From IMG/VR virus record IMGVR_UViG_3300021400_004107: a stretch of 64,000 bases of DNA; one strand, given 5' to 3'. The DNA is from an uncultured virus (IMG/VR IMGVR_UViG_3300021400_004107) (Duplodnaviria; Heunggongvirae; Uroviricota; Caudoviricetes). The first letter of the stretch is position 1. Each line of letters starts with the position of its first letter. Below are positions 1,469 through 63,055 of the stretch, piece by piece. The position numbers and the translations under genes were made by a program. The notes under the pieces were generated by a model that saw nothing but the letters and a program-made list of their open reading frames with translations, searched no databases and was not told the DNA's origin.

Positions 1469-2020
1469 ATGGCTGTATACGCTATTACATGTGAGTCTAG
1501 TGGCCCGTTTCCCGCTCCGGGGATGAACAATGAGGCTACCATGCTCACTTCTATAAGGATCGTTACCTGTCCTCAAAACAAGCCGATCGCTGCAGGGTTC
1601 TTTACCCGCTCCGATGGACAAACGGTCGTGTCCAGATATAACGCGATCACTGACGAGATGTGCAAGGGCCGTCCTTCTTTTGAGTCGGCGGTACCTAAGC
1701 TTAAGGGCTTTATAGGCAATCCCGATAACATCTTCCTTTGCTTTGGCAACGGGTACTACGAACAGCTCCTGCTCAGATACGGAATCAAGGGCAAGTTCGT
1801 CGATCTGCTTCCTGCCGCGCGTGATCTTATGGCGCGTTCTGCCAACATCAACAACCCGAGTGGATCAGGTGGGGCCAAGATTCCGAAGATAGCAGAGCTT
1901 GCAGAATGGCTCGGGTTTGATAACCCGGTCATGCCGGAAGATAAGGCCAAACTTATCTGTGAGACAGCACTCTGGATAAAGGCTGAGCAGAATAATACTG
2001 CTATGGGGAGGATGTCCTGA
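1469..2020 (+). CDS. DnaQ/DEDDh 3'-5' exonuclease-like protein, catalytic residues degenerate
   Basis: SD GGAGG before ATG 1469. NAITDEMCKGRPSF, FVDLL and PKIAELAEWLG resemble the epsilon fold, but the ExoI DxE reads TCE. Ends GRMS. Confidence 0.6.
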   Translation: MAVYAITCESSGPFPAPGMNNEATMLTSIRIVTCPQNKPIAAGFFTRSDGQTVVSRYNAITDEMCKGRPSFESAVPKLKGFIGNPDNIFLCFGNGYYEQLLLRYGIKGKFVDLLPAARDLMARSANINNPSGSGGAKIPKIAELAEWLGFDNPVMPEDKAKLICETALWIKAEQNNTAMGRMS

Positions 2021-2583
2021 TGAAGGCAACCGATGTTAATGATTGTATGAATATATTAGAGGGTTTTGCCGAAGAGGCAAAGAGCTTCGCTTCCAATATC
2101 TTTGCCAAGGAGCCTGTTACTAAGTCAGGACCCTGGTGTGAAGCACCCTGGTGGAGAGAGACCGCGTCTAAGTATCTCAAGTCCGGCACTCTTGCGTGTG
2201 GCGGCGCTGCACTTGCAGCCTGTGCCGAATTCAAGGCGCGTGACACCGGTATCGACCCTGAGATCTACTTAAGATTGTGGATAGCTCAGACCGACTCACC
2301 CTACAGACCGTCTATCATGGCGTGGCTCGGTGGCATATCGGTTGCTCCATCCACCATACACACTCTCACATTAAGCGTTGACGAGGTGTTCGATGCCATA
2401 GACAGCGAGAAGTTTGGCGTATCCGATTGTCTGTACATGCTAGATCACGGCGTTCAGGGCCAGTTGGCCAATCGCGCCGAGGAGCGTATCGCGGAGATCG
2501 CTCCCGAGATCGTACCTCTGGCCCAATATATGATCAAGGTGGCAGCTATTAAGCAGGGTAAACTTGCAGAAAGGTGGAGATAA
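2020..2583 (+). CDS. hypothetical protein
   Basis: Start overlaps the upstream stop (TGATG); 187 aa. Confidence 0.7.
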   Translation: MKATDVNDCMNILEGFAEEAKSFASNIFAKEPVTKSGPWCEAPWWRETASKYLKSGTLACGGAALAACAEFKARDTGIDPEIYLRLWIAQTDSPYRPSIMAWLGGISVAPSTIHTLTLSVDEVFDAIDSEKFGVSDCLYMLDHGVQGQLANRAEERIAEIAPEIVPLAQYMIKVAAIKQGKLAERWR

Positions 2584-2584
2584 T

Positions 2585-2965
2585 ATGGAATTTCCCGAAC
2601 TTGAATCAATAAACGAAATGCTGGTAGACGGCAGAGACACGGCTGTAAAGATGCTCGAAGGTCGTTTATCCCCCGACGAGTTTTCTTACGCTCTGTCCGA
2701 ACTTCTGCTGGCTAAGCTGTATGAGATGGACGCTTCTCCGTCTCACGACTGGGCTAATGCACAAGCTCCCGGACTGGCAGCGGCTACCGAGGCTAAGAGA
2801 ACTTCCGACCTGATCCTCAAGCTTGCGGCAGGCGGCGTGCTTGCGGTGTCCAGAGAATCGGCAACTCCGCCGTCTACAGTCATCTATGAACTGTGCTGGC
2901 AGGCTATGTCCAAAGCAACAGAAGGGAAGCTCCCTGACGAAGAAAGTGTATCCAGAGGTGCATAA
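2585..2965 (+). CDS. hypothetical protein
   Basis: SD GGAG; ATG 2585; operon-packed. Confidence 0.7.
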   Translation: MEFPELESINEMLVDGRDTAVKMLEGRLSPDEFSYALSELLLAKLYEMDASPSHDWANAQAPGLAAATEAKRTSDLILKLAAGGVLAVSRESATPPSTVIYELCWQAMSKATEGKLPDEESVSRGA

Positions 2966-2967
2966 TA

Positions 2968-3780
2968 ATGAACTCGTTCTATTACCGTTATTTCTTAGCA
3001 CGCAAAGGCTTTGTCTTTGAAGTGCCTGACGAGGAATGGGACGACTCTACTCTTGACTTCCTGGCCAAGGATTCCGATAAAGTTAAAGAGATCGCGGACA
3101 AACTCGGTATCTCGTCCTTGTGGCTTACCGACATGCCTGTAATCTTCTCGAAACGCACCTTTAACTACTATATAGGAAGTAAGACAATATCTGACATGGT
3201 CGTACCCGAAGAAGAGGGCCTTGTCCTTGTCAATCCGTCTCAGAAACTAAAGGACGGTCTTCGTGCCATCGAACTGTCTGCTATCGGTTTCGAACCCATG
3301 CCGACATCACTTAAGCCGAGACCGTACTCTATGGTCTTCCTTGCAGCGGAGAAGAACGAATTAACTCTCGACGGGTACCTGAGATCGAAGTTGAACCTCA
3401 CCGGTGATGCTTTCTCAGATCTGTACAAGGAACTCCTTATGTGCGATGCCTTTCCGCCTGTAGGCTCTCCTCTTATCTGCCAAAGAGATATTATCGAAAA
3501 ATTGTCTGCAGCAGAGAATCTGACCTACGACGAATGCGCTTCGGCATTCTATGTCGCAGATGCTGCTTGTCTGTTTAATTTATTCCTGGCATTTAGGCTC
3601 TTTGTCGAGCCTTGGCACATTACACCGAGACGTGATGGCAAATACCTTATTACATATAAGAATTATGACTACGCGGATTTCCTGCCTGTCGGTGTCAAAG
3701 CGGCTCAGAACAAGCCTGATATATCCAGCAAGAAACCTGTTGCCAGAAGACGCGCAGGCGGTGGTGACGCAGGCAGGTAA
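2968..3780 (+). CDS. hypothetical protein with HTH-like N-terminus, paralog of 22191..23033
   Basis: KVKEIADKLGISSLWL is HTH-like; shares blocks with the 22191 ORF; ends GR. Confidence 0.7.
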   Translation: MNSFYYRYFLARKGFVFEVPDEEWDDSTLDFLAKDSDKVKEIADKLGISSLWLTDMPVIFSKRTFNYYIGSKTISDMVVPEEEGLVLVNPSQKLKDGLRAIELSAIGFEPMPTSLKPRPYSMVFLAAEKNELTLDGYLRSKLNLTGDAFSDLYKELLMCDAFPPVGSPLICQRDIIEKLSAAENLTYDECASAFYVADAACLFNLFLAFRLFVEPWHITPRRDGKYLITYKNYDYADFLPVGVKAAQNKPDISSKKPVARRRAGGGDAGR

Positions 3781-3804
3781 GAGAAAGCAAATATAGAGCA
3801 GGAT

Positions 3805-3833
3805 CGCAGCTGTTACAGGCTGCGTTTTATTTT
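3805..3833 (+). terminator. intrinsic terminator
   Basis: CGCAGC/GCTGCG stem plus T-tract. Confidence 0.65.
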
Positions 3834-4295: not shown

Positions 4296-4306
4296 GGAGA
4301 AACGCC

Positions 4307-4665: not shown

Positions 4666-4719
4666 ATGAGAGTGATAAAGGGCGGTCTGGTCAGATTAGA
4701 AGAAATGACGGGGAGATAA
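4666..4719 (+). CDS. 17-aa mini-ORF MRVIKGGLVRLEEMTGR
   Basis: Fills the gap between neighbours; upstream GGAGG; ends GR. Confidence 0.4.
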   Translation: MRVIKGGLVRLEEMTGR

Positions 4720-4723: not shown

Positions 4724-5023
4724 ATGAAGGGTTTAACTAAGGAACGTTTGATGAAGCTCGTCGGTATGGAAGTCGGCGTGCGGCTGTTCGACGACAAAGA
4801 ATACGAAGGTGTGCTCGGTTTTGCTGATGACTTCTCTGCAAGACACGGCTGGAGAAAGCCCGGGTACTTCTACATAGATGACATGGGCTTTAAGGTCAGT
4901 CACGTCAAGAAGATATGGCTTCCGTTAGCCAAGTCCCGGGATCAGGGTCCGTTAATGACTCCCGAAGAATGGCAGAAAGAACAGGAAAAGACTGACTGCA
5001 TCGGCAGAGAATTTATGAGGTGA
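4724..5023 (+). CDS. hypothetical protein
   Basis: 99 aa; ends GREFMR. Confidence 0.7.
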   Translation: MKGLTKERLMKLVGMEVGVRLFDDKEYEGVLGFADDFSARHGWRKPGYFYIDDMGFKVSHVKKIWLPLAKSRDQGPLMTPEEWQKEQEKTDCIGREFMR

Positions 5024-5029: not shown

Positions 5030-6703
5030 ATGGCTAACTTAACTATAGATAAGACTTTTAAGGACCTGCTTGAAAATGAAGGTGTTGGCAGTATCGAGGC
5101 GGTAAGTTTTGAGGTAAAAGACGGTATTCTCACAATGACAACACTACGCAGAGATACCGACTACTTGTATCTTATCGACCAGGATCGTGCTAATCAGACA
5201 GGAAAAGACGGCTTGCCTGTTTATGGCAGCCTTATCGTGAACGGTCAGACGATCTATGAAGAGTACGAAGACGCTGCTTCTGAAGCTGAAGAATACGGTG
5301 AGACCGTCGACGAGGATATCTTTGGCGAGGCGTTTACTGAAATAGATGAACATGTAGCGTATTCGGTTACAAGTCGTACCGTTCTCGTTGAGGCGATCGC
5401 CGAGGAGATGTTCAAGGAGCTGACAAGGTATCCGCTTTCTCACTCCCGTACAAATCAGGGCTATCTGTTAAAGAAGATCCTTGAAAGAAACCCTGATCAC
5501 TTCGACCAGCTCCTTATTTCCGGTTGCGGCGGTATCGCTTTTGACAGAGAAGACACTGATGCGATCCTTGCCGATGGTAAAGAGATCTATGATGACAATA
5601 CTCTTACACGTCTGAAAGATGAGCTTATAGACTGCGTATGCAGGATTGGAACAATAGAGTGTATAGTGAACGACATTCCTTCGGAGGCATTCTCATTTGC
5701 AGTCATCAGAGACATTATTGCTCAGGATCTTAAGACCGGGGAGAAATCCGACGGTACCCAGAGCTCGCGTGACAGTCTTCTGTACAAGGCTTTTGACAGG
5801 CTGCTTCAGACACCTGAGATGGCACCTGTCAGAGACTCGATAAAATGGGCAAAAGAATGGGGCATTGCTTATCAGCCGTCTAAGAACCTGCTCGTTACTA
5901 CTCTCGGCGGCAAGGAGTTTCCTGAAGGCCCTACCGAGGAAATAACACCCGAAGAGCTGGTGCTCATTCTTTCGGGACGTATTCCTAATCACCATTCGCA
6001 GATATTCCAGTTCATGTTTGACTTTAGTGATACCACGGGTGGTGACAAAGACCGTGAGAGGATCCTGAACGGGCTTCTCAAGATGAGACCTGACCTCGCC
6101 GATTATGACAAGGTCTTTGACGACCTGGCTCAGGCTGAGTTTGAGAAGTTTCTTAACGATCCGGATTTAGAGTTTGTTTGCTCAGGTGACAGACCCTGCG
6201 GTCTTTATATGGATTCGGGCAAGCGTTTTGTTCCCCTCGAAGAACTCGAGTGTAACCAGAGCGTACTTCATGTTTGTGAGGCACGTGGTTACACTTCCTA
6301 TTCTGCTCGAGGAGACAACGATACTAAGACTTACACATGTTGGACTGAGTTCGTCAAAGACTCCGATGGTCAGTTTAGAAAAACTCACGGTCGGGAGGCT
6401 TGGGAAGATGTTCAGGAAGACTGCATTAAGCGAGCTCCTGAGATCTCAACCAGTGTCAAGATTAAGAACAACAAGATCTGTGAAGTCTTGCGCTACGAAG
6501 GCAAGCGCGCAGACGGCAGTAAGAGCGGCCCTTACAGTTCGGTTAATCACGGTTTTGATGGTAGGGACGTTCCCAATGCCGAGTTCGATAACACCGACGC
6601 GCGTGCGGGTTATAAGACTAATCCTGTCAGAGTCGCTGCGACAGCAGCAGGGTTCTTTAAGTACCGCGATTATTTGATGGAACAGTTAGGCAGAGGCGCA
6701 TAA
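5030..6703 (+). CDS. acidic hypothetical protein, 557 aa
   Basis: SD GAGGTGA; long ORF; ends GRGA. Confidence 0.8.
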   Translation: MANLTIDKTFKDLLENEGVGSIEAVSFEVKDGILTMTTLRRDTDYLYLIDQDRANQTGKDGLPVYGSLIVNGQTIYEEYEDAASEAEEYGETVDEDIFGEAFTEIDEHVAYSVTSRTVLVEAIAEEMFKELTRYPLSHSRTNQGYLLKKILERNPDHFDQLLISGCGGIAFDREDTDAILADGKEIYDDNTLTRLKDELIDCVCRIGTIECIVNDIPSEAFSFAVIRDIIAQDLKTGEKSDGTQSSRDSLLYKAFDRLLQTPEMAPVRDSIKWAKEWGIAYQPSKNLLVTTLGGKEFPEGPTEEITPEELVLILSGRIPNHHSQIFQFMFDFSDTTGGDKDRERILNGLLKMRPDLADYDKVFDDLAQAEFEKFLNDPDLEFVCSGDRPCGLYMDSGKRFVPLEELECNQSVLHVCEARGYTSYSARGDNDTKTYTCWTEFVKDSDGQFRKTHGREAWEDVQEDCIKRAPEISTSVKIKNNKICEVLRYEGKRADGSKSGPYSSVNHGFDGRDVPNAEFDNTDARAGYKTNPVRVAATAAGFFKYRDYLMEQLGRGA

Positions 6704-6715: not shown

Positions 6716-7129
6716 ATGGAACTTAAGAATGTAACAATGACTTTCGGTTGCAAGACCGTGGAAGAGCTTTGCAAGAACAGAGAGAAATACTTCAGTGAAG
6801 AACTCGAGAAGCAGACTGATCCGTGGTGGATCGGGAACTGTTCCGGCAGCAGAGAAACTTGGCGCTTTATAGGTGCCACGCTTGAAGCCAAAGGCGAAGA
6901 CATTTTTCCTATATTCCTTGCTGAAGGCTATATGACAGCACTAAACGATGAAGCTTTTGCCGATCTGGCTTCGAAGGGCTTTTCTGACAAGATGTGCGGC
7001 TTTATCGCCGGTCAGAAGTCAGTGTACAAAAGAGTATTGCTCGATATACACAGAGAAGATCTCGTAAACCTTGTAGACGAGGGCAAGTTTGACCCTGAGC
7101 AGTACATGGCAAGCACGATGGGAAGATAA
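6716..7129 (+). CDS. hypothetical protein
   Basis: SD AGGAGG; ends MGR. Confidence 0.75.
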   Translation: MELKNVTMTFGCKTVEELCKNREKYFSEELEKQTDPWWIGNCSGSRETWRFIGATLEAKGEDIFPIFLAEGYMTALNDEAFADLASKGFSDKMCGFIAGQKSVYKRVLLDIHREDLVNLVDEGKFDPEQYMASTMGR

Positions 7130-8151: not shown

Positions 8152-8559
8152 ATGGATAAGTTCTTAACTAAGTGGCATGGCCGCGAAATAGAGGATTGGG
8201 GCTCTGTCGTAAGTGACGATTTTCGTGAATTTGCCCGAGACTTTAAGTCTTATGTTAAGCGTTGTTTCGACGGTACCGGGTACAAAGTTGAAGGCTATCA
8301 CGCCGGGCATTATGACATGTCGGGCTTTTTGGTCAAGGAAGGCGACCCTACGGACTGTGTGTACTTCAGCTACAACGTGCCCAGATACGAGAAGATCGAT
8401 GTTACCGCTCCCGGTGCGCATTACGGTGTGCTCTACAGAACAGCAGAAAACACTAAGGATTTTCGCGGCGGCATGAATCATTTCAGCAGCCTCGCGGAAT
8501 TCAACAGTGAAAGGCTGCTCGAAGTTGGCAAAGGCGACTTCACTTTCTATGGGAGGTAA
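8152..8559 (+). CDS. hypothetical protein
   Basis: SD AAGGAGG; ends YGR. Confidence 0.75.
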   Translation: MDKFLTKWHGREIEDWGSVVSDDFREFARDFKSYVKRCFDGTGYKVEGYHAGHYDMSGFLVKEGDPTDCVYFSYNVPRYEKIDVTAPGAHYGVLYRTAENTKDFRGGMNHFSSLAEFNSERLLEVGKGDFTFYGR

Positions 8560-8926: not shown

Positions 8927-9286
8927 ATGAATACTGACAAAGACCCTAAGATGCAGGAGCTTATTCAAAGCATTGAGCGAAGCGGCTTTTCTGTTCACGA
9001 CATATTGAATGCGATGGGATACTACGGATTCAAACTTTGGACTCAGGAAGACATGGAAGCGCAATTCGCGGCAGTCATGAACGAAGTAAAAGAAGACGAC
9101 AGTGTTTCCGGCGAGTTGAGACAGTTGTGGAAAGACAAGACGGCAGCTGAACTCGGTATTAACATTCAGGATTGTGATTCCGGACTCAGTACCTGCACTG
9201 ATGACGATTGGGACACCATCTCGAGTTGCATTTTCTCGAAAATTCATGAGGTAGAAGCTTCTATAAGAAATGTGCAGGGGAGATAA
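8927..9286 (+). CDS. hypothetical protein
   Basis: SD AAGGAG; ends QGR. Confidence 0.75.
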   Translation: MNTDKDPKMQELIQSIERSGFSVHDILNAMGYYGFKLWTQEDMEAQFAAVMNEVKEDDSVSGELRQLWKDKTAAELGINIQDCDSGLSTCTDDDWDTISSCIFSKIHEVEASIRNVQGR

Positions 9287-9587: not shown

Positions 9588-10085
9588 ATGGAACAGGAAA
9601 GAAGTTATATCGAGATTGAATACAATGACGAGAAACTGCGTCTGTACGGCAGTTTTTACGAAGTCGAGGACTGGATGGGTGAGCCTAAGCGTCTTATAGG
9701 GCTCTATCTTGAGACGCCCGAAGGAGAGCCTTACACAGACCTTACTGTAAGCTTTGGTGAGTTCGTCGGAGCGTACGGCAACTTCTTCCCGGATGTCAAT
9801 AACGAGCCCGGCATTGAGAAGTTTTTGCAGGATAACCTCATAGCCTTCCCGGCAGGTGGTTTTAAGACCAGCGGGTTCGTTACTTATCCCGCCTATCGTT
9901 TGTCCCCGTATGTTATGGAGAAGCTCTTTACTCTCGAGGAAATACGAGACTACAAACTTGATTATGATTTCCATGGAGAAGCCACAGAAGACATGCGAAC
10001 ATCTTGCGAGTGGGCCAAAGAGTCATTGGATAAAGAAAAGAAAAGTTTCGACGAGTTTCTGGCAGAACGTCAAGGTCGAGCTTAA
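9588..10085 (+). CDS. DUF4313-like protein
   Basis: EPYTDLTV...FFPDVNN...SGFVTYPAY pattern typical of DUF4313; ends GRA. Confidence 0.6.
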   Translation: MEQERSYIEIEYNDEKLRLYGSFYEVEDWMGEPKRLIGLYLETPEGEPYTDLTVSFGEFVGAYGNFFPDVNNEPGIEKFLQDNLIAFPAGGFKTSGFVTYPAYRLSPYVMEKLFTLEEIRDYKLDYDFHGEATEDMRTSCEWAKESLDKEKKSFDEFLAERQGRA

Positions 10086-10096: not shown

Positions 10097-10672
10097 ATGC
10101 TCATCAATTATCCTACGCGTAGATATAAAGGCTATGCCATCGAAAAAGTCAAGAAAGACGATGAGATAGTTTACCGTGTCTATGACCCCGTCAAAGAAAA
10201 CCAGACCATTGCGTACGCCGATTCCGTCGATGAGGCTATGCAGGGTATAGATGAACAGTGTACTGCTAAGCACGAGATATCTTTCGACAATGGCTATGGC
10301 ACAACGTATCGATTCACTGTCGTGGACTCCATTCCGGACAGCAGATACCACGTCTGGAACATCGGCGATCACATGGTCGACGGCTATCTTCCTTTGTGCA
10401 GACGTGCTCCGGGCCAGGAAGACTGGCAACAGGAAGTGGATGTGAACTCTTTAGTTGCAATAGACATGTCGGATCGTCCGAAAGTTCTGGCTGAGATGCG
10501 AAGAGCTGCGGGTTATGGTGTGACTTCCTTGGAGACTGCTATGAAGTACGCCTTCGCAAAAGAACCGCCGCAGAATCAGATGGAACGCGGACAGAGGGCC
10601 TACGCCAAAGATCTGCTGCCTGTATTCGAAGAGTTGTCACCAAGCTTTGTGGATAGAATGTATGGGAGGTAA
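10097..10672 (+). CDS. hypothetical protein
   Basis: SD GGAGG; ends YGR. Confidence 0.75.
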   Translation: MLINYPTRRYKGYAIEKVKKDDEIVYRVYDPVKENQTIAYADSVDEAMQGIDEQCTAKHEISFDNGYGTTYRFTVVDSIPDSRYHVWNIGDHMVDGYLPLCRRAPGQEDWQQEVDVNSLVAIDMSDRPKVLAEMRRAAGYGVTSLETAMKYAFAKEPPQNQMERGQRAYAKDLLPVFEELSPSFVDRMYGR

Positions 10673-10677: not shown

Positions 10678-11034
10678 ATGGGTTATAGAGCTAAAGCACA
10701 TGGATTTATTTGTCTAAAGGCTCCGGTGGATTCTTATAGTGCGCTGGAACAACTCCTGGGGTCAACACCGGGCTTCGATTTCGGTTTGGCAGACGACTAT
10801 CAGACGGTGGACATTTCTTTTTGCGACAACTATAAGGAAGAGTCTTGGTATTCTTTCTACGCCTCAATTTCGGATAAAACCGAGAAGGCCAAGATCGAAT
10901 TTGAAGGCGAAGACGGCTGCCTTTGGAAGCACGAGTTTCTGAAGGAAACTTCACAATGGCTTGAATTCTCCGGACGAGTTGTCTATGAGGAGTTCCAACC
11001 TATATGCGGCCTTGAGCAAGCGCAAGGGAGGTAA
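10678..11034 (+). CDS. hypothetical protein
   Basis: Operon-packed; ends QGR. Confidence 0.75.
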   Translation: MGYRAKAHGFICLKAPVDSYSALEQLLGSTPGFDFGLADDYQTVDISFCDNYKEESWYSFYASISDKTEKAKIEFEGEDGCLWKHEFLKETSQWLEFSGRVVYEEFQPICGLEQAQGR

Positions 11035-11462: not shown

Positions 11463-12218
11463 ATGGAACATATAACAGTAGAAATCTTACGCGCCAATGG
11501 TATCTATGTTGACGGCGACGGTGTCTATGATAACGCAGACATAGACGGTATGTTAGCGACGCTCAAAGACCCCGGCAATCTTAAGGACTTCCAATCACAT
11601 CTGATCTGCAGCGTTCATGACGAGAAAGCGATCCTCGACTGTATAGATGACGGCTCCTATGAACGCTTTGACCGATATGACTCGGATGTCTGCGAGATCT
11701 TCATATCGGCGTACGAGAACTGGCTTTTATCTAAGGGTAGGCAATCAGTCGATAAAGAGTGCCTTGCCATGGACAAAGCAGCCGAGAGATACCTCGATAT
11801 GATCTCAACGGTCGAACGGTCCCGGGAATGCTGGCCCAAGAACCCTGACAGTGCCAACTTCGTCAGCACTATGGTCTTCGGCTTCTACAACCGCGCGATC
11901 GACAGTGAGGAGCACAAGCTTTTAGGATCCAGAGAAGATACACGGGATAAGATCTCTCTTACCTACTCAGTTTATCATCTCGATGACGTGCCCGGTAAGG
12001 TGGAGCCTGTCTACACGGCTTCGCACGAGGTATCACTCATAAGTACGTCTCAGCGTATGTACGGTCTTAATGCTGTTGCTGAAGATATTACCTGGATGGT
12101 GTATCAGATAAATGGTGGAAAGGCTTTTGCAAGTAAGAAAGATCTCATAGAGGCTATAACTGCTCCTAAACAGGGCATAGATAGTAGAACCGAGAGTCCT
12201 ATTGTTCCCGGGAGGTAA
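11463..12218 (+). CDS. hypothetical protein
   Basis: 251 aa; ends PGR. Confidence 0.75.
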   Translation: MEHITVEILRANGIYVDGDGVYDNADIDGMLATLKDPGNLKDFQSHLICSVHDEKAILDCIDDGSYERFDRYDSDVCEIFISAYENWLLSKGRQSVDKECLAMDKAAERYLDMISTVERSRECWPKNPDSANFVSTMVFGFYNRAIDSEEHKLLGSREDTRDKISLTYSVYHLDDVPGKVEPVYTASHEVSLISTSQRMYGLNAVAEDITWMVYQINGGKAFASKKDLIEAITAPKQGIDSRTESPIVPGR

Positions 12219-12222: not shown

Positions 12223-12825
12223 ATGAATAAGAGTAAAATGACAGGTCATGAAGCGATCAGGATCCTGCGTGAGGCAAAGAGTTGTGTGGTAGGCAGAGTA
12301 TACGGTCTGCACGACGCTGTTGAGATGGCGACGAACGCTATAAATAACAGGATCTCCGTAGAGAACTTTGCTTTGAAGTTGGAAGACCGTCTGGCTCGCT
12401 ACAGCAGAGGACACGGCCAGAATGACACCCTTGATGAAGTATTCAGGATCATTCACGAGGAGAAACAGGCTGTGTTAGAGCCCGGCATGGAAAAAGACAG
12501 GATAGAGGACTGGCTGTCTAACAACATTCAGAACTGGGTCTTAAACGGTGCCGAGGGCTCTGTTGAGATGGACCTGGCAGAGGATGTGTTCTTATCTTTT
12601 GAGCCTTCGGTGCGTGATAGTGCGAAGGCATTCCTTTCAGTTCTCGCTAATGACGACATTGCCTGGCGCGAATTCATGAAGACATCCGCTTCCGAGTTCG
12701 CGTTTGATTCGTTCTCGATCATATCGCCTGCTGTACCCGAGTCTGAAGTCAGCACTTTCGAACTTTTGACGGATACAGTCTATGATGCTTGGAAGCAGTT
12801 ATACGGCGAACAGTTGGGGAGGTAA
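12223..12825 (+). CDS. hypothetical protein sharing a module with the next ORF
   Basis: ATG 12223 after GGAGGT; ends LGR. Confidence 0.75.
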   Translation: MNKSKMTGHEAIRILREAKSCVVGRVYGLHDAVEMATNAINNRISVENFALKLEDRLARYSRGHGQNDTLDEVFRIIHEEKQAVLEPGMEKDRIEDWLSNNIQNWVLNGAEGSVEMDLAEDVFLSFEPSVRDSAKAFLSVLANDDIAWREFMKTSASEFAFDSFSIISPAVPESEVSTFELLTDTVYDAWKQLYGEQLGR

Positions 12826-12830: not shown

Positions 12831-13379
12831 ATGGATCGTACTTATAAGGATGGCGATAGTGTACAGATGGATTTCTACAGTCATGAAGAGCCTTTGTGCT
12901 CTGTAGAAGGACGAGTGAACGGCGAATATCTGAATGTAACGGGCGGTTCCATCCCCCTGGACATAAACCAGGTATTTACTACAAATATAGTGTCCAGACC
13001 GGACCTGAAAGAGAACTCCAACCCTGATCCGGGAGAGACTATTGAACATTTAAGAGAGTTGAAAACATTAAAAATTGAGTTTCCTAACACATTACAAGAA
13101 CAGGCTCTTGACTTTGCTATTAAGGCTGTGGAGAATCAAGCTTCAGTCGACACCTTCATCAATGAGTTCAGAGAGCGCTTGAAGAGATACGGACTCAGTC
13201 ACGGTAACAATCGAACTTTAGAAGATGTTTTCCAGATACTAAATGCGACTAAACAGTCCTACGAGAAGGGGGAACTGTCCCCGAAGCCTCAGCACAACCC
13301 TTGCAACGACATGGCAGATATCATGTCGGATCCTGAGCTCTACAAGCATTGGATGGAAACTTCCGGGAGGTATTTATGA
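12831..13379 (+). CDS. hypothetical protein sharing a module with the previous ORF
   Basis: ATG 12831 after GGAGGT; ends GRYL. Confidence 0.75.
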   Translation: MDRTYKDGDSVQMDFYSHEEPLCSVEGRVNGEYLNVTGGSIPLDINQVFTTNIVSRPDLKENSNPDPGETIEHLRELKTLKIEFPNTLQEQALDFAIKAVENQASVDTFINEFRERLKRYGLSHGNNRTLEDVFQILNATKQSYEKGELSPKPQHNPCNDMADIMSDPELYKHWMETSGRYL

Positions 13380-13669
13380 GTAACTATAAACAGACTATAA
13401 AATCCGTCGAGAAGGGCGGAGTCGTCTTTGAAGTAAAAGAACTTCTTGCTCCGGAAGAGATATTCTCAAGACGCAACTATGAGACGGGTATGGACGAGAT
13501 CGACTGGGTCAATATCGAGTTCAAGAGTCAGTACGGCTACAGACACTTTAAGTTTCAGAAGGACGGTCTTTCTTGTGATACAGGCACTGTCAACTTCCTG
13601 AACGGCACCTCGGTCGAATTCACTACCGACGGCAGGCTCGAGGAGAGACTTGCTGAGCGTGGAAGGTAA
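13376..13669 (+). CDS. hypothetical protein
   Basis: ATGA overlap with the upstream stop; ends RGR. Confidence 0.7.
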   Translation: MSNYKQTIKSVEKGGVVFEVKELLAPEEIFSRRNYETGMDEIDWVNIEFKSQYGYRHFKFQKDGLSCDTGTVNFLNGTSVEFTTDGRLEERLAERGR

Positions 13670-23231: not shown

Positions 23232-23501
23232 ATGATTAACACAGATATTACAAATCCTACCAGACTCAAAGTGGCATATCTGTCTTCGGATAATGAAGAT
23301 ATCAGATGCAGCATCATAGCCAATCCCAACTGCCCGGCGTCGGTAACGGAGCTGGGTGCTTGTGATGATTCGGCTAAGGTAAGAGCTGCGGCGATCGAAA
23401 GCGGAAAGCTATCCGCCGAGACGCTCGCAAAGCTCTCGGAGGACTTCGATCCTGACGTAGCCAATCTTGCTGTTGCATCACTTTGTTGCCTGGGCAGGTA
23501 G
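23232..23501 (+). CDS. small HEAT/LRV-repeat-like protein
   Basis: IIANPNCP, DDSAKVRAAA, EDFDPDV; ends LGR. Confidence 0.55.
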   Translation: MINTDITNPTRLKVAYLSSDNEDIRCSIIANPNCPASVTELGACDDSAKVRAAAIESGKLSAETLAKLSEDFDPDVANLAVASLCCLGR

Positions 23502-24828: not shown

Positions 24829-25227
24829 ATGAGGGATTTTAAGATGCCGAACCTGGACAAGGTTCTTGAAAAGGGAAACAGCCAGGTCAGATCTACGAAC
24901 GAGGCTGAGTACGAGAATGCTGCTATGGAATTGTTCCGTACAGTCAAGCATATGTTCCCGGGCGAGACCAGATGGTTTGGTACCGAGACTCCGGGCATCA
25001 AGGCTGTCGGTATCAAAAACGACAAAGACTGCCCGACTTTAATGCTCAAGCTGACTCGCTACAACCCCGAAGGCGGCGACATGAGCTACAAGCTCGGCAG
25101 CCTTAAGGATCTTCAGAAGTTGGATAGCTTGAGCGAGATCCGCTGGTTCGTAAACAACTGGCGCACTCTCATGCCGGGCCTCAAACAGGATCATGCCGTA
25201 CAGCACGTGTCCGGAAGAAACTTCTAA
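24829..25227 (+). CDS. hypothetical protein
   Basis: SD AGGAGG; ends GRNF. Confidence 0.75.
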   Translation: MRDFKMPNLDKVLEKGNSQVRSTNEAEYENAAMELFRTVKHMFPGETRWFGTETPGIKAVGIKNDKDCPTLMLKLTRYNPEGGDMSYKLGSLKDLQKLDSLSEIRWFVNNWRTLMPGLKQDHAVQHVSGRNF

Positions 25228-28407: not shown

Positions 28408-28791
28408 ATGGACATTCAAAAGTATGAAGAAGCTTTAAGACAGTTTTGTACCAAGCAGCTCGGAGAGATCCGGGCTGTTTATTATAGTGACGGATTTTCC
28501 AAGTCAGATCCGTACAGCGACGGTCCTGAGAAGATGGACAAGGATGAGCTTCAGAATCTCGGTATGGCCTTTAATCAGTTAGGATCTGTTCTGGAATACG
28601 GCGCCGCTTTGATAGGTGTCCTGGAAGACACAGGTATAGATCTGACTGCAGAGCAGTATATGGAAATGCTTAATAACCAGAACGCTCTTATTGAGCAGGG
28701 TCAGTCAATGGAAGGCTCTGGGCCTTGCACAGATATGTGCAGAGATCATCTCGAGGAGTATCTGGCCGATCATGAATTATTTGGTCGCTAA
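28408..28791 (+). CDS. hypothetical protein
   Basis: SD GGAGGT; ends FGR. Confidence 0.7.
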   Translation: MDIQKYEEALRQFCTKQLGEIRAVYYSDGFSKSDPYSDGPEKMDKDELQNLGMAFNQLGSVLEYGAALIGVLEDTGIDLTAEQYMEMLNNQNALIEQGQSMEGSGPCTDMCRDHLEEYLADHELFGR

Positions 28792-30012: not shown

Positions 30013-30300
30013 ATGGCACGCAAGTCAGGTTTAGGTTTTTTCGGTGTGGTAAGACAGAGTGCCCGCCGCGATCACCAGGCTTTTAACGCTACTCTCGGAC
30101 AGATCGTTCCTGCGAGAGAGCACCCGCATCTGATGGAACAGGCTGCGGAAGAAAGAGCTGTGAGGCCTGCATCACAGTCTCACAGTTTGCACAGACATAA
30201 CAAGAATCGCGGGCCTCGGCCTTCGGTCAGACCGTATGATCCGAGGACTTCGGCTTCCTTGGGAGAGACAAGATCGGCTGATTTTGGCCGCGGTATGTGA
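30013..30300 (+). CDS. hypothetical protein, tandem paralog B
   Basis: MARKSGLG...; ends GRGM. Confidence 0.7.
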   Translation: MARKSGLGFFGVVRQSARRDHQAFNATLGQIVPAREHPHLMEQAAEERAVRPASQSHSLHRHNKNRGPRPSVRPYDPRTSASLGETRSADFGRGM

Positions 30301-30922: not shown

Positions 30923-31831
30923 ATGAAGAGTATTACAGAGTTTCAGAAGGATTTGCTGAGAGATTTCCCTAATTATCTCCCGGAACGTATGGTGGGCAGC
31001 GAGATCACTACACAGACGATCTCCAAGAACGGTAAAGACATGACAGGTATTGTCGTTAAGATGGGCCAGGTAAGCCCAGTGCTGTATGTTGAGAAGCTGT
31101 ACGATCAGTATAGCAACGGACAGTCTTACGAAGAGGTTCTTGAAGGTATTACAAGAACACTTGAGAATGTGGTTCCGCCTTCAGTAGACAGCGTAGTAAT
31201 CAAGCTCAAGAATTGGGAAGAGAATGCACAATTGCTGGCTGTTCCCGCTGATCATCCTAAGGCCAAGAAATTCAAAGCCGCCCAGATTATCGGCGACATT
31301 GCAGCCGTTCCTTGTTGCGTGGTATCTTCCGATTCCGAAGGTTTCGGTCTTGTGACGTACGATGATCTTCTTTGCAACCAGTTCGACATAGACGAACAGG
31401 CGTTGATCGAAGGCGCCAAGGCTAACATGGCCAAGGATGTCAGCCTGAAGACTCTCAGAGACATGGTAGCAGGTATGATGCCGCCGGAAATGGAAGGATT
31501 CCTTCCGCCTCCGACAGAAATGGAGCTTAACACTTTTGTTCTCACTAACACCAGAGGACAGCAGGGTGCCGCTGCCATATTCTCCCAGGAGATAATGGAT
31601 AAGATCTGTGCAGAACACTCCGCACTCAAAGACGGTTGTGTGATACTTCCAAGTTCCATTCATGAGGTCATCTTGATGCCGATGAGCGTCGCCGATCCGG
31701 CCGAGTTGGCTACTATGGTTCAGAATATTAACGGAGACGTTGTGTCTGCAGAAGAACAGCTCTCTGATAATATATATGCCTACTATCCCGGAATCGGGCT
31801 CGAACCTATAGATGTTGGCAGGTCTCGTTAA
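30923..31831 (+). CDS. DUF5688 family protein
   Basis: KNG...SPVLY, LTN...GAAAI, ILPSSIHEVIL, EEQLSDNIYAY; ends GRSR. Confidence 0.75.
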   Translation: MKSITEFQKDLLRDFPNYLPERMVGSEITTQTISKNGKDMTGIVVKMGQVSPVLYVEKLYDQYSNGQSYEEVLEGITRTLENVVPPSVDSVVIKLKNWEENAQLLAVPADHPKAKKFKAAQIIGDIAAVPCCVVSSDSEGFGLVTYDDLLCNQFDIDEQALIEGAKANMAKDVSLKTLRDMVAGMMPPEMEGFLPPPTEMELNTFVLTNTRGQQGAAAIFSQEIMDKICAEHSALKDGCVILPSSIHEVILMPMSVADPAELATMVQNINGDVVSAEEQLSDNIYAYYPGIGLEPIDVGRSR

Positions 31832-50624: not shown

Positions 50625-51695
50625 ATGTCAGGTATGAGCCCGGATCTGTATTTACGCTTCATGCATAAGTTTACAGCAGATGTGTTAGAGGACTTCAACC
50701 CCACAAATACGCCGCTATCCAAACTTCCTGTTATTGACTTCTGGACTTCAAATTGGGATCCCAGAGAGTTTAACGACAGACCCGATTACCATGACTGGGT
50801 GGTCAAGAACGGTTTCGATGCTTTCTTGCCACCGTTTTCTGCTTGCTGGGTCAAGGTTATGGACCATTGCGCTCTCGTAAGGGCCAGCAGAGATTTTCTG
50901 CAGTTCCTTATCTGCGGCAAGATGGTCTTCGATAAGGTAAACGGGGATCGCCTGGCTTTGTTTAATGTCAAAGGAATGGGTTATCCGTTTATATCTTGCG
51001 CTTTGTCTCAGGTTGAGAGAGATACTCTCAACGACTCATGGCGTTATACGATTACTAATGGTATCGCGGACCTGTTTATGAGCTTCGATGATCAGGAGTG
51101 CAAAGATGTACTTCGAAAGTATCAGATACCGGAATCCTGCCTTCCCGGAATAAAAGAAAATATGGAGATCAATCTCTCCGAGAACATGTCTCAGGATTTC
51201 TTGGACGAGTGGTATGCGCTGTCTAATTGTGTTATGGCTGCTCTTGCCGTAACGAACTATCTGTTATCAAGACGCTCCATCGAGAAGGCAGAGAAGAAAT
51301 GCATCGTCATTCCCGATTCGGTCAAGCTTTTCGAAGAAGACCGTCAGGAGCAGAAACGAATTATCAAAAACCTGAAGGAGTATTCTTTCGAGCACGTCAC
51401 GATCTTATCCACTGATCCGCCTAAGCGCGTTACTGAGCGCAACATAGATAAGCTGTATGCCAGAGAGCCATACCAGATCCACACTCCCGCCTGGCTTGTT
51501 TCGGAGCATACCAGAGCACCGGCCCGTGCTCATGAGCGCCATCTTAAGGACGGGCGCGTCATCCAGGTCAGAGAGGGCTCGCATACGGCTACGGTTTCTG
51601 CACATGTAAATCAGCACAAAGGTATAGAAACGCCTAAGCCTGACATTGCCGAGTTCAGAGAGACTCTGCAGGTCTGGGAAGGCCGAGGATATTAA
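50625..51695 (+). CDS. hypothetical protein (phage/plasmid type)
   Basis: WLVSEHTR...HERHLKDGRVIQV; ends GRGY. Confidence 0.75.
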   Translation: MSGMSPDLYLRFMHKFTADVLEDFNPTNTPLSKLPVIDFWTSNWDPREFNDRPDYHDWVVKNGFDAFLPPFSACWVKVMDHCALVRASRDFLQFLICGKMVFDKVNGDRLALFNVKGMGYPFISCALSQVERDTLNDSWRYTITNGIADLFMSFDDQECKDVLRKYQIPESCLPGIKENMEINLSENMSQDFLDEWYALSNCVMAALAVTNYLLSRRSIEKAEKKCIVIPDSVKLFEEDRQEQKRIIKNLKEYSFEHVTILSTDPPKRVTERNIDKLYAREPYQIHTPAWLVSEHTRAPARAHERHLKDGRVIQVREGSHTATVSAHVNQHKGIETPKPDIAEFRETLQVWEGRGY

Positions 51696-51714: not shown

Positions 51715-52014
51715 ATGGAAGTTTATGTAACCAGTATTTATGACAACGATTCCGACACATCCGATCTCAAAGTGTTCGAGACGAAGGAACAGGCCCAGGC
51801 TTACGCCTATTCGGAATACGAGAAGATCTATCTTCAGCACCAGAACGACGGCGACTTAGACTGTGACAGTTTTGTTCCGAAGAGTGAATTCTGGCCGGGA
51901 GACTTGGGTGAGCAGGATGTATACGCAGTCATTCAGTGTTATGACATGCACATCACGTTTACCATTGCTACCAGAGAGGTTGAACGCACCCTTGAGATAG
52001 GGAGGTGCAGCTGA
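51715..52014 (+). CDS. hypothetical protein
   Basis: SD GGAGGT; ends GRCS. Confidence 0.7.
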   Translation: MEVYVTSIYDNDSDTSDLKVFETKEQAQAYAYSEYEKIYLQHQNDGDLDCDSFVPKSEFWPGDLGEQDVYAVIQCYDMHITFTIATREVERTLEIGRCS

Positions 52015-53883: not shown

Positions 53884-54054
53884 ATGGAGAAGAAGATCGT
53901 TTGCGCTACACCTGAGCAGGTCAAGAAGTCTGGCGAGGAGATCTGCAAGAGATTTCCTGTATCTATGAATATGCTCGCCGGCAATGAGGAGAAGGCGCGC
54001 GAGCTGCTTAAGGAGAAGGAAAATGAAAGAGACTCTTCTTACCCCGGCAGATAA
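53884..54054 (+). CDS. 56-aa protein inside the RNA cluster, ends PGR
   Basis: SD AAGGAG; MEKKIVCATPEQ...DSSYPGR. Confidence 0.6.
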   Translation: MEKKIVCATPEQVKKSGEEICKRFPVSMNMLAGNEEKARELLKEKENERDSSYPGR

Positions 54055-55165: not shown

Positions 55166-55630
55166 ATGTCCCGTTGTATAGAATTTACTCCTGAGAACCT
55201 TGATAAGCTTAAGCGTATAGAGCGTGAGGCCTATGACGGTACCGGCTATATGCAGATGCAATGGTGTGAAACGTGGGCAGATATTGCCGGATACTGTGAG
55301 TGTTCTCTTGAGCATCTCCACATCGCTTTTATTGACGACGGATATGTCATCGCTGCTTGCCATGAAGACTACATGGAAATCGTCGATCTTGCCTCGTCAG
55401 GCAGGAATATGAACCTGTTTGCAGTATGGGATTTTTTGAAGGAACTTAATAAGCCGATGGTTTTCGATGCCAGGGAGAGTACCTCGTACAGGCTTATAAA
55501 ACTCCTGGAACGCAGAGGCGAGATCTCGATCGTAGAAGACGCCCCACATCAATGGGGAGGAGAGACCTTCCATGACGTAAGATGCACTTTCAATCTGTCC
55601 CGGCATCCGGAGATAGGCCGATACACATAA
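55166..55630 (+). CDS. hypothetical protein, GNAT-like fold possible
   Basis: SD GGAGGT; EIVDLAS...DARESTSY; ends GRYT. Confidence 0.65.
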   Translation: MSRCIEFTPENLDKLKRIEREAYDGTGYMQMQWCETWADIAGYCECSLEHLHIAFIDDGYVIAACHEDYMEIVDLASSGRNMNLFAVWDFLKELNKPMVFDARESTSYRLIKLLERRGEISIVEDAPHQWGGETFHDVRCTFNLSRHPEIGRYT

Positions 55631-58227: not shown

Positions 58228-58818
58228 ATGATCTTAATCATCGGACGCTCGGGCAGCGGTAAAGACTTCCTTGCCCGCGAACTTGCCAAGCAGGGCTTAT
58301 CCCAGGTGAAGTCGTACACCACGCGCCCTCCTCGCTATGAGGGTGAGAATACGCACATCTTCCTATCTGCTCAAGAGGCTAAAGGCTTTAGCGATAAGAT
58401 AGCCACAACAGTCATCAACGGCTATGAATACTTCGCCACTTCTTCGCAGATGAAGGATAACGATGTCTATATTATCGATCCCAGAGGCACTGCGGAGCTT
58501 TTGCGGAATTGCCCCGAAGTCACTTTTGACATCTGCTACCTGCAGGCAGACGATTCCTGTCGCCGTGCTATGGCTGTAGGGCGTGGATCTGACCTTGCTA
58601 AAGAAGCAAAGGTATACGAGATGCGCAATGCTGACGAGGATGCTCAGTTCCGCGAGTTCGAAAACATGCTCAAGGACACTTATGCATTCTACGCCTTTAA
58701 GAATAAGTACCCCAACGTAAGACAAGTCATTATCGGCCATAACGACTATCGACCCGAGACCATGAACAATCTCGTTCAGTCACTGACTGCCCCTGTCTGT
58801 GCGGGGCGTGGTACTTAA
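58228..58818 (+). CDS. guanylate kinase-like protein
   Basis: GRSGSGKD P-loop, SYTTRPPR, YIIDPRG; ends GRGT. Confidence 0.75.
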   Translation: MILIIGRSGSGKDFLARELAKQGLSQVKSYTTRPPRYEGENTHIFLSAQEAKGFSDKIATTVINGYEYFATSSQMKDNDVYIIDPRGTAELLRNCPEVTFDICYLQADDSCRRAMAVGRGSDLAKEAKVYEMRNADEDAQFREFENMLKDTYAFYAFKNKYPNVRQVIIGHNDYRPETMNNLVQSLTAPVCAGRGT

Positions 58819-61482: not shown

Positions 61483-61503
61483 AGAAAGGACTCAATATCC
61501 AAC

Positions 61504-62163
61504 ATGGCTAAGAATAACAAAAGAAGGGAAGCAGAGCCCGGGGATCTTGTTTTCCCGGACAATAACTTCCTCAACAAGATGTACTCGGACGCGTTTAATC
61601 ACCGATGTTCCGTCTTCAAGCGTCCGTTCGTTGTGATCGGTAAGCATCGTAACAGACCGTATCTTTCGATCATCGCACCCTTGTCGTCCAAGTTCTATTA
61701 CAACTATATAAAGCTCAAGAGACGATACGATCTGGGCCTTGAAAACCCTCGCGCACCTTCGATCATACTTGTGTCCAACGACGCACACAAGTCTCAGGGC
61801 TTCTACAACGCAGCTCTGATGATGGATCAGGCTATCATCGTGCCGACTAAGTCATTATGCGTATATAAGAAAGCACATACGGAATGGCATCTGGACCTAC
61901 CCAGACGACCCATAAGGCCATCGGTGCCATTTGATGATCCGCAATATCCGTTTATCCTGGCTCGCTACGAGAAGGCAGAAGACGAGTGGGAGAAATGCAC
62001 GGACAAGTCTTTGTTCAGTCCTAAGGTAAATATCAACCTGATCGTTTCGCAAGGCAGAGACATGATCAAGACTTTGTACGAAACAGGCAAGATGGAGACC
62101 GACCTGGATGTTGCGATTGGCAGGTCTGAGGGGCTTCTTCATCCCGACATGTTCGACTTCTGA
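61504..62163 (+). CDS. PemK/MazF-like protein
   Basis: PGDLVF...KRPFVVIG...IIAPLSSK...MMDQ. Confidence 0.5.
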   Translation: MAKNNKRREAEPGDLVFPDNNFLNKMYSDAFNHRCSVFKRPFVVIGKHRNRPYLSIIAPLSSKFYYNYIKLKRRYDLGLENPRAPSIILVSNDAHKSQGFYNAALMMDQAIIVPTKSLCVYKKAHTEWHLDLPRRPIRPSVPFDDPQYPFILARYEKAEDEWEKCTDKSLFSPKVNINLIVSQGRDMIKTLYETGKMETDLDVAIGRSEGLLHPDMFDF

Positions 62164-62174
62164 GGTGAGACGAT

Positions 62175-62426
62175 ATGAGAAATATACACAATGAACTCGT
62201 CTCTTCCCGTGAAGTTTATCAGTTCGCGGATCACCGCCCGGAAGACCTCTACAAGCAGGTGATCTCCATGACTTTGTACCGACTGGAAACTATGCTCGAG
62301 GGTTCTCAGAACTTCGAGTCGGAAGAGTCGTGGCTTTTTAGACGAGACATATCTTCTACAGCAGAAAGTATTCGTGCCGCTTTAGGTATCAGCGAAGCAA
62401 TGGCTTCGGAGGACGACCCGTTATGA
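62175..62426 (+). CDS. hypothetical protein
   Basis: SD GAGGTGA. Confidence 0.65.
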   Translation: MRNIHNELVSSREVYQFADHRPEDLYKQVISMTLYRLETMLEGSQNFESEESWLFRRDISSTAESIRAALGISEAMASEDDPL

Positions 62427-63055
62427 GATATATGACACATTACCAGAGAGTTAATGCGTATAAGCACATCAGCCGGGACAACTGGACACTGGACATGACT
62501 GCACGTAAGTACGGCGTATCCGTATCAGCTGTCGAGGCCATGCTCAGAAGTCAGAAGAAGAATGCAAAGATCGGCCTTGGCTGGGAGGCAGTCGCCAAGA
62601 TCTGCGACGAGCGTGATGCCGGACTTAATGTCAGGGACATCTCGCTGTATTGGAACGTGCCTGAGAGGGTCATTCTTACCTTAAAAAGAGATGCAGACTT
62701 CGTGCCGGGACGAGAGCCCGGGCCGTCCGGATATGTGTTCCCCAGGGACAAGTATGATGTGTTTATCGCTGACTATGACCGTATTCCGCCCAAGACAATG
62801 ACTCGTAAGGATATAGCGGCGAAGTATGGACTTACCGAGAATCAGCTGAACTGGATAACTTCGGGTAATGCCAAGAATTCACGCATCGTTTCTCCTGAAG
62901 TTAAAGAGCAGATCATGAAAGACATCGAGGCTTTGAATAGCAAGAGTATCAGGCGCCTGGCGGATAAGTACGACATCCCTTACGATATCGCGAGGAGCTG
63001 GATAGGTAATCACTTAAAGGAGCTTAAAGAAGCTGAAGCTGCCTTGGGCAGATAG
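62423..63055 (+). CDS. multi-HTH DNA-binding protein
   Basis: Four HTH-like units (TARKYGVS, ISLYWNVP, IAAKYGLT, LADKYDIP); ends LGR. Confidence 0.65.
   Translation: MRYMTHYQRVNAYKHISRDNWTLDMTARKYGVSVSAVEAMLRSQKKNAKIGLGWEAVAKICDERDAGLNVRDISLYWNVPERVILTLKRDADFVPGREPGPSGYVFPRDKYDVFIADYDRIPPKTMTRKDIAAKYGLTENQLNWITSGNAKNSRIVSPEVKEQIMKDIEALNSKSIRRLADKYDIPYDIARSWIGNHLKELKEAEAALGR

Follow-up and report, generated by a model that had tools for sequence, protein, structure and literature searches.

Why should many unrelated proteins encoded by a single genetic element end in the same two residues? The question is raised by a stretch of DNA of 64,000 nucleotides (the window; 64 kb out of a 126-kb metagenome contig), recorded as an uncultured virus (IMG/VR IMGVR_UViG_3300021400_004107; Duplodnaviria, Heunggongvirae, Uroviricota, Caudoviricetes), in which glycine followed by arginine (Gly-Arg, GR) lies at or near the C-terminus of many predicted proteins. 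The initial annotation regarded this shared tail as a candidate export signal that tags cargo proteins for delivery into a recipient during conjugation, and proposed that the tail should be enriched over host chromosomal proteins, survive the removal of ends overlapping a Shine-Dalgarno (SD) sequence and be conserved in homologues. Our analysis favors a more ordinary origin, to which we assign a probability of roughly 55%: the GR tails would be the protein-level shadow of an SD junction that is reused from gene to gene, and copies stranded away from a start codon would be kept by ordinary purifying selection.

Enrichment of Gly-Arg tails in one element lineage

Tiling of the plus strand gave 95 open reading frames (ORFs) downstream of position 1300, which were reduced to 92 because three overlap transfer RNA (tRNA) or transfer-messenger RNA (tmRNA) genes. 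GR is present within the last six residues of 25 of these 92 ORFs, against 1.3 expected from the interior frequency of the dipeptide (50 of 17,715 dipeptides), and arginine is the terminal residue of 28. The binomial probability of the excess is 1e-24 in the set of 95 ORFs, and GR is by far the most enriched tail dipeptide, the runner-up being MG (5 against 0.5 expected). The dipeptide directly precedes the stop codon in 13 tails (GR-stop), is followed by one residue in a single tail (GRx-stop) and by two residues in ten (GRxx-stop), and one tail has four residues beyond the arginine. For all 26 ends listed in the initial annotation, an open frame with GR among the final six residues was confirmed, together with the codons quoted. 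The 26th, at 4711..4719 (+), terminates an ORF of only 23 codons that lies in the spacer 5' of the gene at 4724, its GGG AGA TAA being the SD of that gene; the ORF ending at 54054, which has 56 codons and lies between tRNA-Met and tmRNA genes, is doubtful as a real gene.

To compare different DNAs on equal terms, one ORF caller was applied to both strands with a minimum length of 80 amino acids. GR tails were then found in 22 of 85 ORFs of the window and in 10 of 19 ORFs of L007, a 13-kb contig of a Clostridiales metagenome-assembled genome (MAG; G001) that encodes five proteins homologous to those of the window. The corresponding counts are 4 of 291 (4.6 expected) in 320 kb of the chromosome of the same MAG, 3 of 139 in 150 kb of the Butyrivibrio megaplasmid pCY186, and 0 of 62 in the VirD4-bearing regions of G001, which represent integrative and conjugative elements (ICEs) or type IV secretion systems (T4SSs). 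Fisher's exact test against the chromosome gives p = 4e-12 for the window and 4e-11 for L007, where tiling of the plus strand finds GR tails in 11 of 23 ORFs. Enrichment over host chromosomal proteins, the comparison proposed in the initial annotation, is therefore present in the element. Because the excess occurs in the window and in L007, but not in the chromosome, pCY186 or the ICE regions, it is a trait of the element lineage; neither the host, nor Lachnospiraceae plasmids, nor conjugative regions in general share it. In L007, arginine is also found within the last four residues of 17 of the 23 ORFs.

It is extremely improbable that the excess arose by chance or as an artefact of ORF calling. 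The ORFs ending at 4719 and 54054, two of the 26 listed cases, are indeed doubtful, but the deviation from the interior frequency is very large, the excess persists with the second ORF caller and its length cut-off, and it recurs in L007. Paralogy was rejected as the origin of the shared tails, because only four weak paralogue pairs exist among the 95 ORFs.

Tails that contain the ribosome-binding site of the next gene

Nine GR tails are of an SD type, in which GGG-AGG or GGG-AGA is followed by the next start codon 5-9 nt after the arginine codon; their stop-to-start gaps range from -4 to +6 nt. Six of them, all on the plus strand, are GR-stop tails with a gap of 4-6 nt: 8551..8559 (gap 6 nt, ATG at 8566), 10664..10672 (5 nt, ATG at 10678), 11026..11034 (5 nt, ATG at 11040), 12210..12218 (4 nt, ATG at 12223) and 12817..12825 (5 nt, ATG at 12831), each of which reads GGGAGGTAA, and 9278..9286 (GGG AGA TAA; 5 nt, ATG at 9292). 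The exact 9-mer GGGAGGTAA thus occurs at five tails, against 0.29 expected. The other three are GRxx-stop tails on the same strand in which the stop overlaps the start: GRMS at 2006..2020 (GGG AGG 8 nt 5' of the ATG at 2020, in a TGATG overlap), GRYL at 13365..13379 (GGG AGG 5 nt 5' of the ATG at 13376, in an ATGA overlap) and GRCS at 52000..52014 (GGG AGG 8 nt 5' of the ATG at 52014). Two further GR-stop tails (+) are ambiguous, since the start lies 16 nt on and a stronger SD stands between: 7121..7129 (GGA AGA TAA, followed by AAGGAG) and 13661..13669 (GGA AGG TAA, with a separate SD). Overall, an SD core is embedded inside the upstream ORF in 25 of 42 close gene pairs.

The location of an SD within the 3' end of the upstream cistron, with translation coupled by termination and reinitiation, is a textbook arrangement, and the geometry of the nine SD-type tails fits it. 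The element differs from the textbook case in that the arginine frame and the exact SD-stop word GGGAGGTAA dominate, and in that the GR dipeptide is also found on genes without an adjacent start. Of the embedded SDs in the window, 16 of 25 use the arginine frame; the MAG chromosome has 7 of 32 and pCY186 has 2 of 16 (9 of 48 in the pooled controls), the glutamate frame being dominant in both controls. A full-text search of the literature, limited in scope, returned no paper on a bias of C-terminal residues caused by embedded SD sites.

Codon usage at the tails follows SD-likeness rather than the amino acid. Within the last four codons, the arginine codons are enriched 10.5-fold (AGG), 4.3-fold (CGA), 3.8-fold (AGA), 1.9-fold (CGT), 1.7-fold (CGC) and 1.0-fold (CGG), and the glycine codons 5.3-fold (GGG), 3.1-fold (GGA), 1.7-fold (GGC) and 1.2-fold (GGT). 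Lysine serves as a control for charge: the last four residues in the window contain arginine at 3.8 times and lysine at 0.9 times the expected frequency, whereas the host chromosome of the related contig shows 1.8 times for lysine and 1.4 times for arginine. The roughly tenfold enrichment of AGG, the approximately twofold enrichment of CGN and the absence of a lysine excess are what an SD origin predicts, and are not expected of a charge-based signal.

The glycine can be explained along similar lines. The base 5' of GGAGG is A at 24 of 30 intergenic sites and G at 9 of 13 sites embedded in the arginine frame (p = 1e-5), so that in-frame AGG-AGG is avoided. Tandem in-frame AGG-AGG, composed of rare arginine codons, is harmful in Escherichia coli because it causes frameshifting, and rare arginine codons ahead of stops lead to SsrA tagging in that organism. 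An equivalent problem would account for the use of GGG-AGG (Gly-Arg) instead of the SD-optimal AGG-AGG (Arg-Arg), but the likeness is incomplete, as AGA is the commonest arginine codon in the window.

A model for the origin and persistence of the tails

In the model that we favor, the SD of the next gene (GGAGG, mostly in the form GGGAGGT) would occupy the final codons of the gene before it, in the frame xGG-AGG, and would be followed either by an immediate stop (GGGAGG-TAA, then 4-6 nt and the ATG) or by two codons with an overlap of stop and start. This frame would provide the arginine, and the glycine would come from GGG, with G at the position where intergenic sites have A, so that AGG-AGG does not arise in frame. 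Gain, loss and re-joining of genes and spacers at such junctions may leave a tail without its role as a ribosome-binding site. Its codons would then drift to common synonyms (GGC or GGT; AGA or CGN), and Gly and Arg would persist through ordinary purifying selection on C-termini. Tails without an SD would accordingly descend from SD-type tails and would probably have no function of their own.

Comparison with related contigs, which covered 40 of 742 variant places, shows that junctions do move. In two sequencing runs, the spacer before the gene at 4724 (4665-4721) is deleted, which leaves only 14 nt between the tail TGG AGG AAA CAG TAG and the ATG at 4724; with the spacer in place, as in the window, this tail is stranded at a distance of 60 nt. 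Two runs break at 13653, just 5' of the GR tail ending at 13669, and continue into different right-hand ends. The tail ending at 12218 is encoded by GGG AGG with a 4-nt gap, and its L007 orthologue (30% identity) ends in MGRA encoded with GGT AGA and followed by a 66-nt gap. The reverse is seen at 59169, where the window has CGC and the L007 orthologue has AGG TGA and 5 nt before the next gene. These orthologue pairs switch between an SD-positioned and a stranded state with the residue kept.

In related contigs from other runs, breakpoints of deletions or replacements were noted at gene tails and spacers at 4664-4722, 13031-13129 and 13653.

Tails outside ribosome-binding sites and the possibility of a peptide signal

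The junction itself does not account for all GR tails: it fails for 14 of 25, which use other codons or are followed by no start within 14 nt, in addition to the two ambiguous ones, and the observation in the initial annotation that many tails use non-SD codons was accurate. Seven of the 14 non-SD tails (all on the plus strand) are encoded by GGC-AGR: GR-stop at 3772..3780 (GGC AGG TAA, gap 77 nt), 23493..23501 (GGC AGG TAG), 54046..54054 (GGC AGA TAA, in the doubtful 56-codon ORF) and 63047..63055 (GGC AGA TAG, in a helix-turn-helix (HTH) protein, gap 167 nt); GREFMR at 5003..5023, in which GGC AGA is not an SD and the final AGG TGA lies within the SD of the next gene; GRGA at 6689..6703, in a 557-aa protein (GGC AGA, with a separate SD, AAGGAGG, after the stop); and GRSR at 31817..31831, in a DUF5688 protein (GGC AGG, gap 173 nt). 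Six are encoded by G-CGN: GRA of a DUF4313 protein at 10074..10085 (GGT CGA, separate SD after the stop), GR-stop at 28783..28791 (GGT CGC TAA, gap 121 nt), GRGM at 30286..30300 (GGC CGC, the SD of the next gene, GAGGTGAT, lying downstream), GRGY at 51681..51695 (GGC CGA, separate SD after the stop), GRYT at 55616..55630 (GGC CGA) and VCAGRGT of a P-loop kinase-like protein at 58804..58818 (GGG CGT). The remaining one, GRNF at 25213..25227, is encoded by GGA-AGA and precedes a gap of 47 nt. The pattern recurs in L007, where 8 of the 11 tails (mostly GRA-stop) are encoded by GGC AGA, GGT AGA, GGG CGC, GGG CGT or GGT CGT; where such a tail stands before a close gene, a site of the TAA-AGGAGG type mostly follows.

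Several properties of these tails, and of the junctions in general, weigh against the model. Among the 84 ORFs without an SD-type or ambiguous tail, the 14 non-SD tails compare with about 1.2 expected (p = 4e-11), so the enrichment survives the removal of SD-overlapping ends; even without the GGC-AGR cases, the remaining seven give p = 2e-4. The six G-CGN tails compare with 0.8 expected (30 of 17,715 interior dipeptides), and CGN-coded GR tails add three in L007 and one in L003, a contig from a sludge metagenome that is syntenic with 27.0-33.0 kb of the window. Seven of the 14 precede gaps of 47-173 nt, and the other seven stand before a gene with its own SD 3' of the stop. Little ancestry in GGG or AGG is visible, as GGG is present in one and AGG in three of the 14 and codon usage is near equilibrium. 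The preference for the arginine frame is significant against the pooled controls (Fisher p = 2e-4) and is not forced by geometry, and although 34% of same-strand gaps in the host chromosome are 15 nt or shorter, GR tails are not in excess there. In addition, GR is invariant in 13 of 19 DUF4313 homologues (59-95% identity), which end in GRA or GRS, and the sequence VCAGRG[T/A]-stop is common to two unrelated proteins, the P-loop kinase-like protein (58798-58818) and a Fic protein of L007 (831-851), whose tails differ only at three third-codon positions.

Other features of the non-SD tails are in line with descent from the junction. GGC-AGR, found in half of them, is one synonymous change away from GGG-AGR. 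The offsets from the C-terminus match those of SD-type tails, both classes consisting of GR-stop and GRxx-stop in the window, and GRx-stop is the commonest form in L007 for SD-type (2 of 2) and non-SD (4 of 8) tails alike.

The same observations bear on the principal alternative, in which x-Gly-Arg followed by zero to two residues is a dedicated C-terminal signal read by a factor of the element or host, and the SD was written into Gly-Arg codons that already existed. The reader may be, for instance, a coupling protein for secretion, an adaptor, a protease or an enzyme that modifies proteins. This alternative is possible, though we judge it somewhat unlikely. It would explain the non-SD excess, the ten CGN-coded tails over the window, L007 and L003, the restriction to the element lineage, the favored arginine frame, the use of Gly in place of the SD-optimal A before GGAGG, and the occurrence of VCAGRG in unrelated proteins. 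A dedicated signal does not explain why synonymous codons are very unequally enriched and why lysine is not enriched, and an offset that ranges from 0 to 4 residues is unexpected for it; no candidate receptor was identified.

Conservation of the tails in homologues

Orthologues at 37-64% identity retain GR with different codons, so the conservation proposed in the initial annotation was found. In L003 it is retained in both testable orthologues: the tail ending at 28791 (GGT CGC) corresponds to MGR-stop with GGG CGT (37% identity), and that ending at 31831 (GGC AGG and two codons) corresponds to one with GGA AGA (37% identity). The QGRA tail of the DUF4313 protein is encoded by GGT CGA GCT in the window and by GGC AGA GCG in L007 (64% identity), and the tail ending at 6703 has GR in all four homologues (90-94% identity). 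Since the excess remains when SDs are set aside, GR is kept with other codons, and no such excess occurs in the host chromosome, some constraint does act on the amino acids themselves. To this extent the initial interpretation stands, but no connection of the tails with export or with delivery by conjugation was found.

Conservation does not extend to the protein families at large. The six most distant of the 19 DUF4313 homologues have no GR tail. In the DUF5688 family, GR tails occur in 8 of 120 homologues and terminal arginine in 31 of 120, whereas the closest relatives (96, 91, 52 and 38% identity) have GR near the end at shifted positions, as though GR were re-positioned relative to the C-terminus and not to the fold, which would suit a peptide signal. 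Among the 150 best representatives of the P-loop kinase-like family, only 5 have the tail. Close relatives with GR in families that generally are without it indicate that the tail was acquired within the lineage and then kept.

Tails of other sequences are also common to the window and L003 (EYYTY, SFLGM, KTWAxG and GxGL), and tails in this element are therefore constrained generally. The few orthologue pairs available show no clear difference between the two kinds of tail: 4 of 5 preserve GR, and 3 of 6 preserve the last dipeptide of a non-GR tail, a finding that argues against a dedicated signal. An AlphaFold2 model of the DUF4313 protein (165 residues; mean predicted local distance difference test score 89.6), built on the DUF4313 alignment, has a terminal helix at 141-163, which G163, R164 and A165 are predicted to close; confidence drops to 65 in the last five residues. 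A glycine with a basic residue after it commonly ends a helix. In this one protein, the tail would thus be the end of a helix and not a flexible peptide, which again speaks against a signal.

Relation to type IV secretion and degradation signals

As a special case of a peptide signal, GR might be a cargo tag for conjugative type IV secretion, as the initial annotation supposed; this is distinctly unlikely. The substrates of the VirB/VirD4 system of Agrobacterium (VirE2, VirF and others) have arginine-rich C-terminal transport signals with several basic residues in a flexible segment of about 20-50 residues. Plasmid proteins with C-terminal or internal signals are also transported by the conjugation systems of pKM101, RP4 and F (for F, see PMC11288057 and PMC8406263), a precedent for a signal of this kind.

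The GR tails resemble all these signals in that a mobile element has many soluble, mutually unrelated proteins with an arginine close to the C-terminus. They differ from the VirB/VirD4 signals in that a single arginine usually follows glycine at what is probably a helix end, without a basic cluster in a flexible C-terminus and without an excess of lysine. Nor do T4SS-bearing elements of the same host have such tails, as the VirD4 regions of G001 show. In the window, Pfam and NCBIfam identified neither T4SS genes nor a relaxase nor an integrase, and in particular no VirD4, VirB4 or relaxase among 89 (Pfam) and 80 (NCBIfam) ORFs. Within this scope the result counts against a signal read by a coupling protein, but such genes may lie in the other 62 kb of the contig. 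A full-text literature search, again limited in scope, found no paper on a Gly-Arg signal in Gram-positive conjugation.

The claim that no membrane or secreted protein carries GR is nearly correct, with one exception: GR is found in 1 of 17 ORFs with a hydrophobic segment and in 24 of 78 others (Fisher p = 0.037), a contrast that would favor a signal on soluble proteins but is confounded by region, because 14 GR tails lie at 1.3-14.3 kb, where only one such protein is encoded.

A degradation tag of the ssrA/ClpXP type does not fit either. The consensus of ssrA/ClpXP degrons is a non-polar C-terminus, (L)AA or similar, whereas the GR tails end in R or in GR with one or two varied residues. The tmRNA of the element itself encodes the tag ANEPELAVA, which is unlike the GR tails.

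The conserved non-SD remainder is nevertheless not explained by ribosome-binding sites and could be a real peptide signal. In its broadest form, which we hold only tentatively and consider rather unlikely, mobile elements of gut and sludge Clostridia would mark a quarter to half of their soluble accessory proteins with Gly-Arg and zero to two further residues. The marked proteins may include the Fic, P-loop kinase-like, DUF4313, DUF5688 and HTH proteins, and the reader may be, for example, a transfer machinery or an adaptor or protease. That form of the signal would also make the GGGAGGTAA junction a consequence of the tail and not the reverse, which is similarly doubtful.

A nucleotide motif at gene boundaries

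Four of the GR-stop tails without an SD coincide with a nucleotide motif, GGCAGRTAR, which occurs at 15 sites in the window (ten on the plus and five on the minus strand) against 1.23 expected. Examples are located at 3772, 17849, 20692, 23493, 26381, 58825 and 63047 (+) and at 3481, 14942, 21722, 25603 and 29177 (-), and several sites have the extended form TTGGCAGRTAAGAGR in common. On the plus strand, four copies form GR-stop tails (3772, 23493, 54046 and 63047), four lie in spacers 7-64 nt past a stop, and one abuts the start at 59809. A related pattern, GCAGRTAAG, is likewise in excess (13 sites against 0.93 expected), and control DNA contains 1.6-2.6 copies of GGCAGRTAR per 64 kb.

It is conceivable, but improbable, that a separate motif with a role in regulation, processing or recombination at gene boundaries creates part of the non-SD tails. 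The TAR of the motif would stop any frame that enters it, and one of the frames would yield Gly-Arg and the stop; the excess over expectation and control DNA and the location of the plus-strand copies at tails, in spacers and at one start are consistent with this explanation. The motif accounts, however, for only 4 of the 14 non-SD tails, is absent from L003 and has two copies in L007. Its minus-strand and intragenic copies have no evident role, neither a structure nor a protein partner was found, and the motif may itself be stranded junction sequence, composed of a tail and the purine-rich SD region. With regard to GGCAGRTAR as a sigma-70 promoter or terminator, one consensus promoter-like match overlaps the copy at 26381, and promoter-like matches overall are no commoner than in shuffled sequences.

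The plus-strand copies are found almost only at or just past gene ends. After the stop of the gene ending at 58818, the same frame gives GFGR and a stop through a GGCAGGTAA copy. The copies at 14942 (-) and 17849 (+) form an inverted pair that flanks a UvrD-like gene.

Implications

What is new here is the scale of the phenomenon, which involves a quarter to half of the proteins of the element, its lineage specificity relative to the host chromosome, and the conserved fraction of non-SD tails. If the SD junction is the origin of the tails, the element offers a clean and quantified case of a translation signal that shapes protein ends, in which the ends outlive the signal, and caution is needed when C-terminal motifs shared by phage or plasmid proteins are read as targeting tags. 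The split of codons into SD-like and synonymous ones, the lysine control and the host-chromosome control are tests that can be reused for this purpose. If a peptide signal is the origin, GR would be the first case in which accessory proteins of a Gram-positive mobile element share a C-terminal tag for recognition, and it would provide a handle on which proteins of unknown function act together or reach recipient cells.

Gene content and relatives of the element

The genes of the window are tightly packed (GC content 45-52%), and its long ORFs occupy the plus strand with a single exception. GC skew is positive in nearly all 4-kb bins of positions 1-64000; transcription is therefore co-oriented with a single direction of replication or transfer. 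Matches to Pfam and NCBIfam are sparse and comprise an SNF2 helicase at 3-1253 (-), a UvrD-like helicase, a Toprim/DUF3991 protein, DUF4313, DUF3846 and DUF5688 proteins, an HTH/AbiEii pair, a HipA-like protein and YdjM. A scan with PHROGs added almost no annotation and did not reveal any phage structural gene, and a phage structural module at 1.4-14.3 kb was rejected, since neither PHROGs nor Pfam supports it. The element may be conjugative, a label suggested by its DUF families.

In the region 37083-46479, a surface protein of 2803 aa (an adhesin) with six TQ ester-bond and five SpaA-like domains is followed by a class B sortase; a series of small membrane proteins lies 3' of the sortase at 46.8-50.0 kb. 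A cluster of RNA genes at 53497-55075, detected with Rfam and ARAGORN, contains tRNA-Thr(CGT), tRNA-Met(CAT), tmRNA and tRNA-Lys(TTT). The tmRNA (54235-54618) is full-length (112.8 bits). With regard to integration at these genes, the rest of the window contains no repeat of at least 14 nt of the tmRNA or of a tRNA gene that would mark an integration site.

Near-identical DNA is present in contigs from animal gut metagenome runs of several studies. No match was obtained with megablast of the window against phages and against plasmids, with tblastn of the DUF4313 protein against plasmids, with profile searches of viral contigs, or with a profile search of genome contigs that used the DUF5688 alignment. 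The corresponding genome-contig search with the DUF4313 alignment identified a single locus, L007, and a profile search of metagenome contigs identified the contig of the window itself and two short relatives. By tblastn, DUF5688 matched only two distant Butyrivibrio plasmids, one of which became the plasmid control. Among 399 genomes of the class to which G001 belongs, a search yielded only G001 itself and one distant match, the latter on a contig with zero GR tails.

At 27002-28791, an HTH protein, an AbiEii-like nucleotidyltransferase and a 127-aa protein that ends in GR form a three-gene unit, which is kept in L003 (313-2114) at 79%, 71% and 37% identity, respectively. L007 encodes, at 168-12723, the Fic protein, a tyrosine recombinase, an ADP-ribosylglycohydrolase and an M20/M28-like peptidase together with genes of unknown function.

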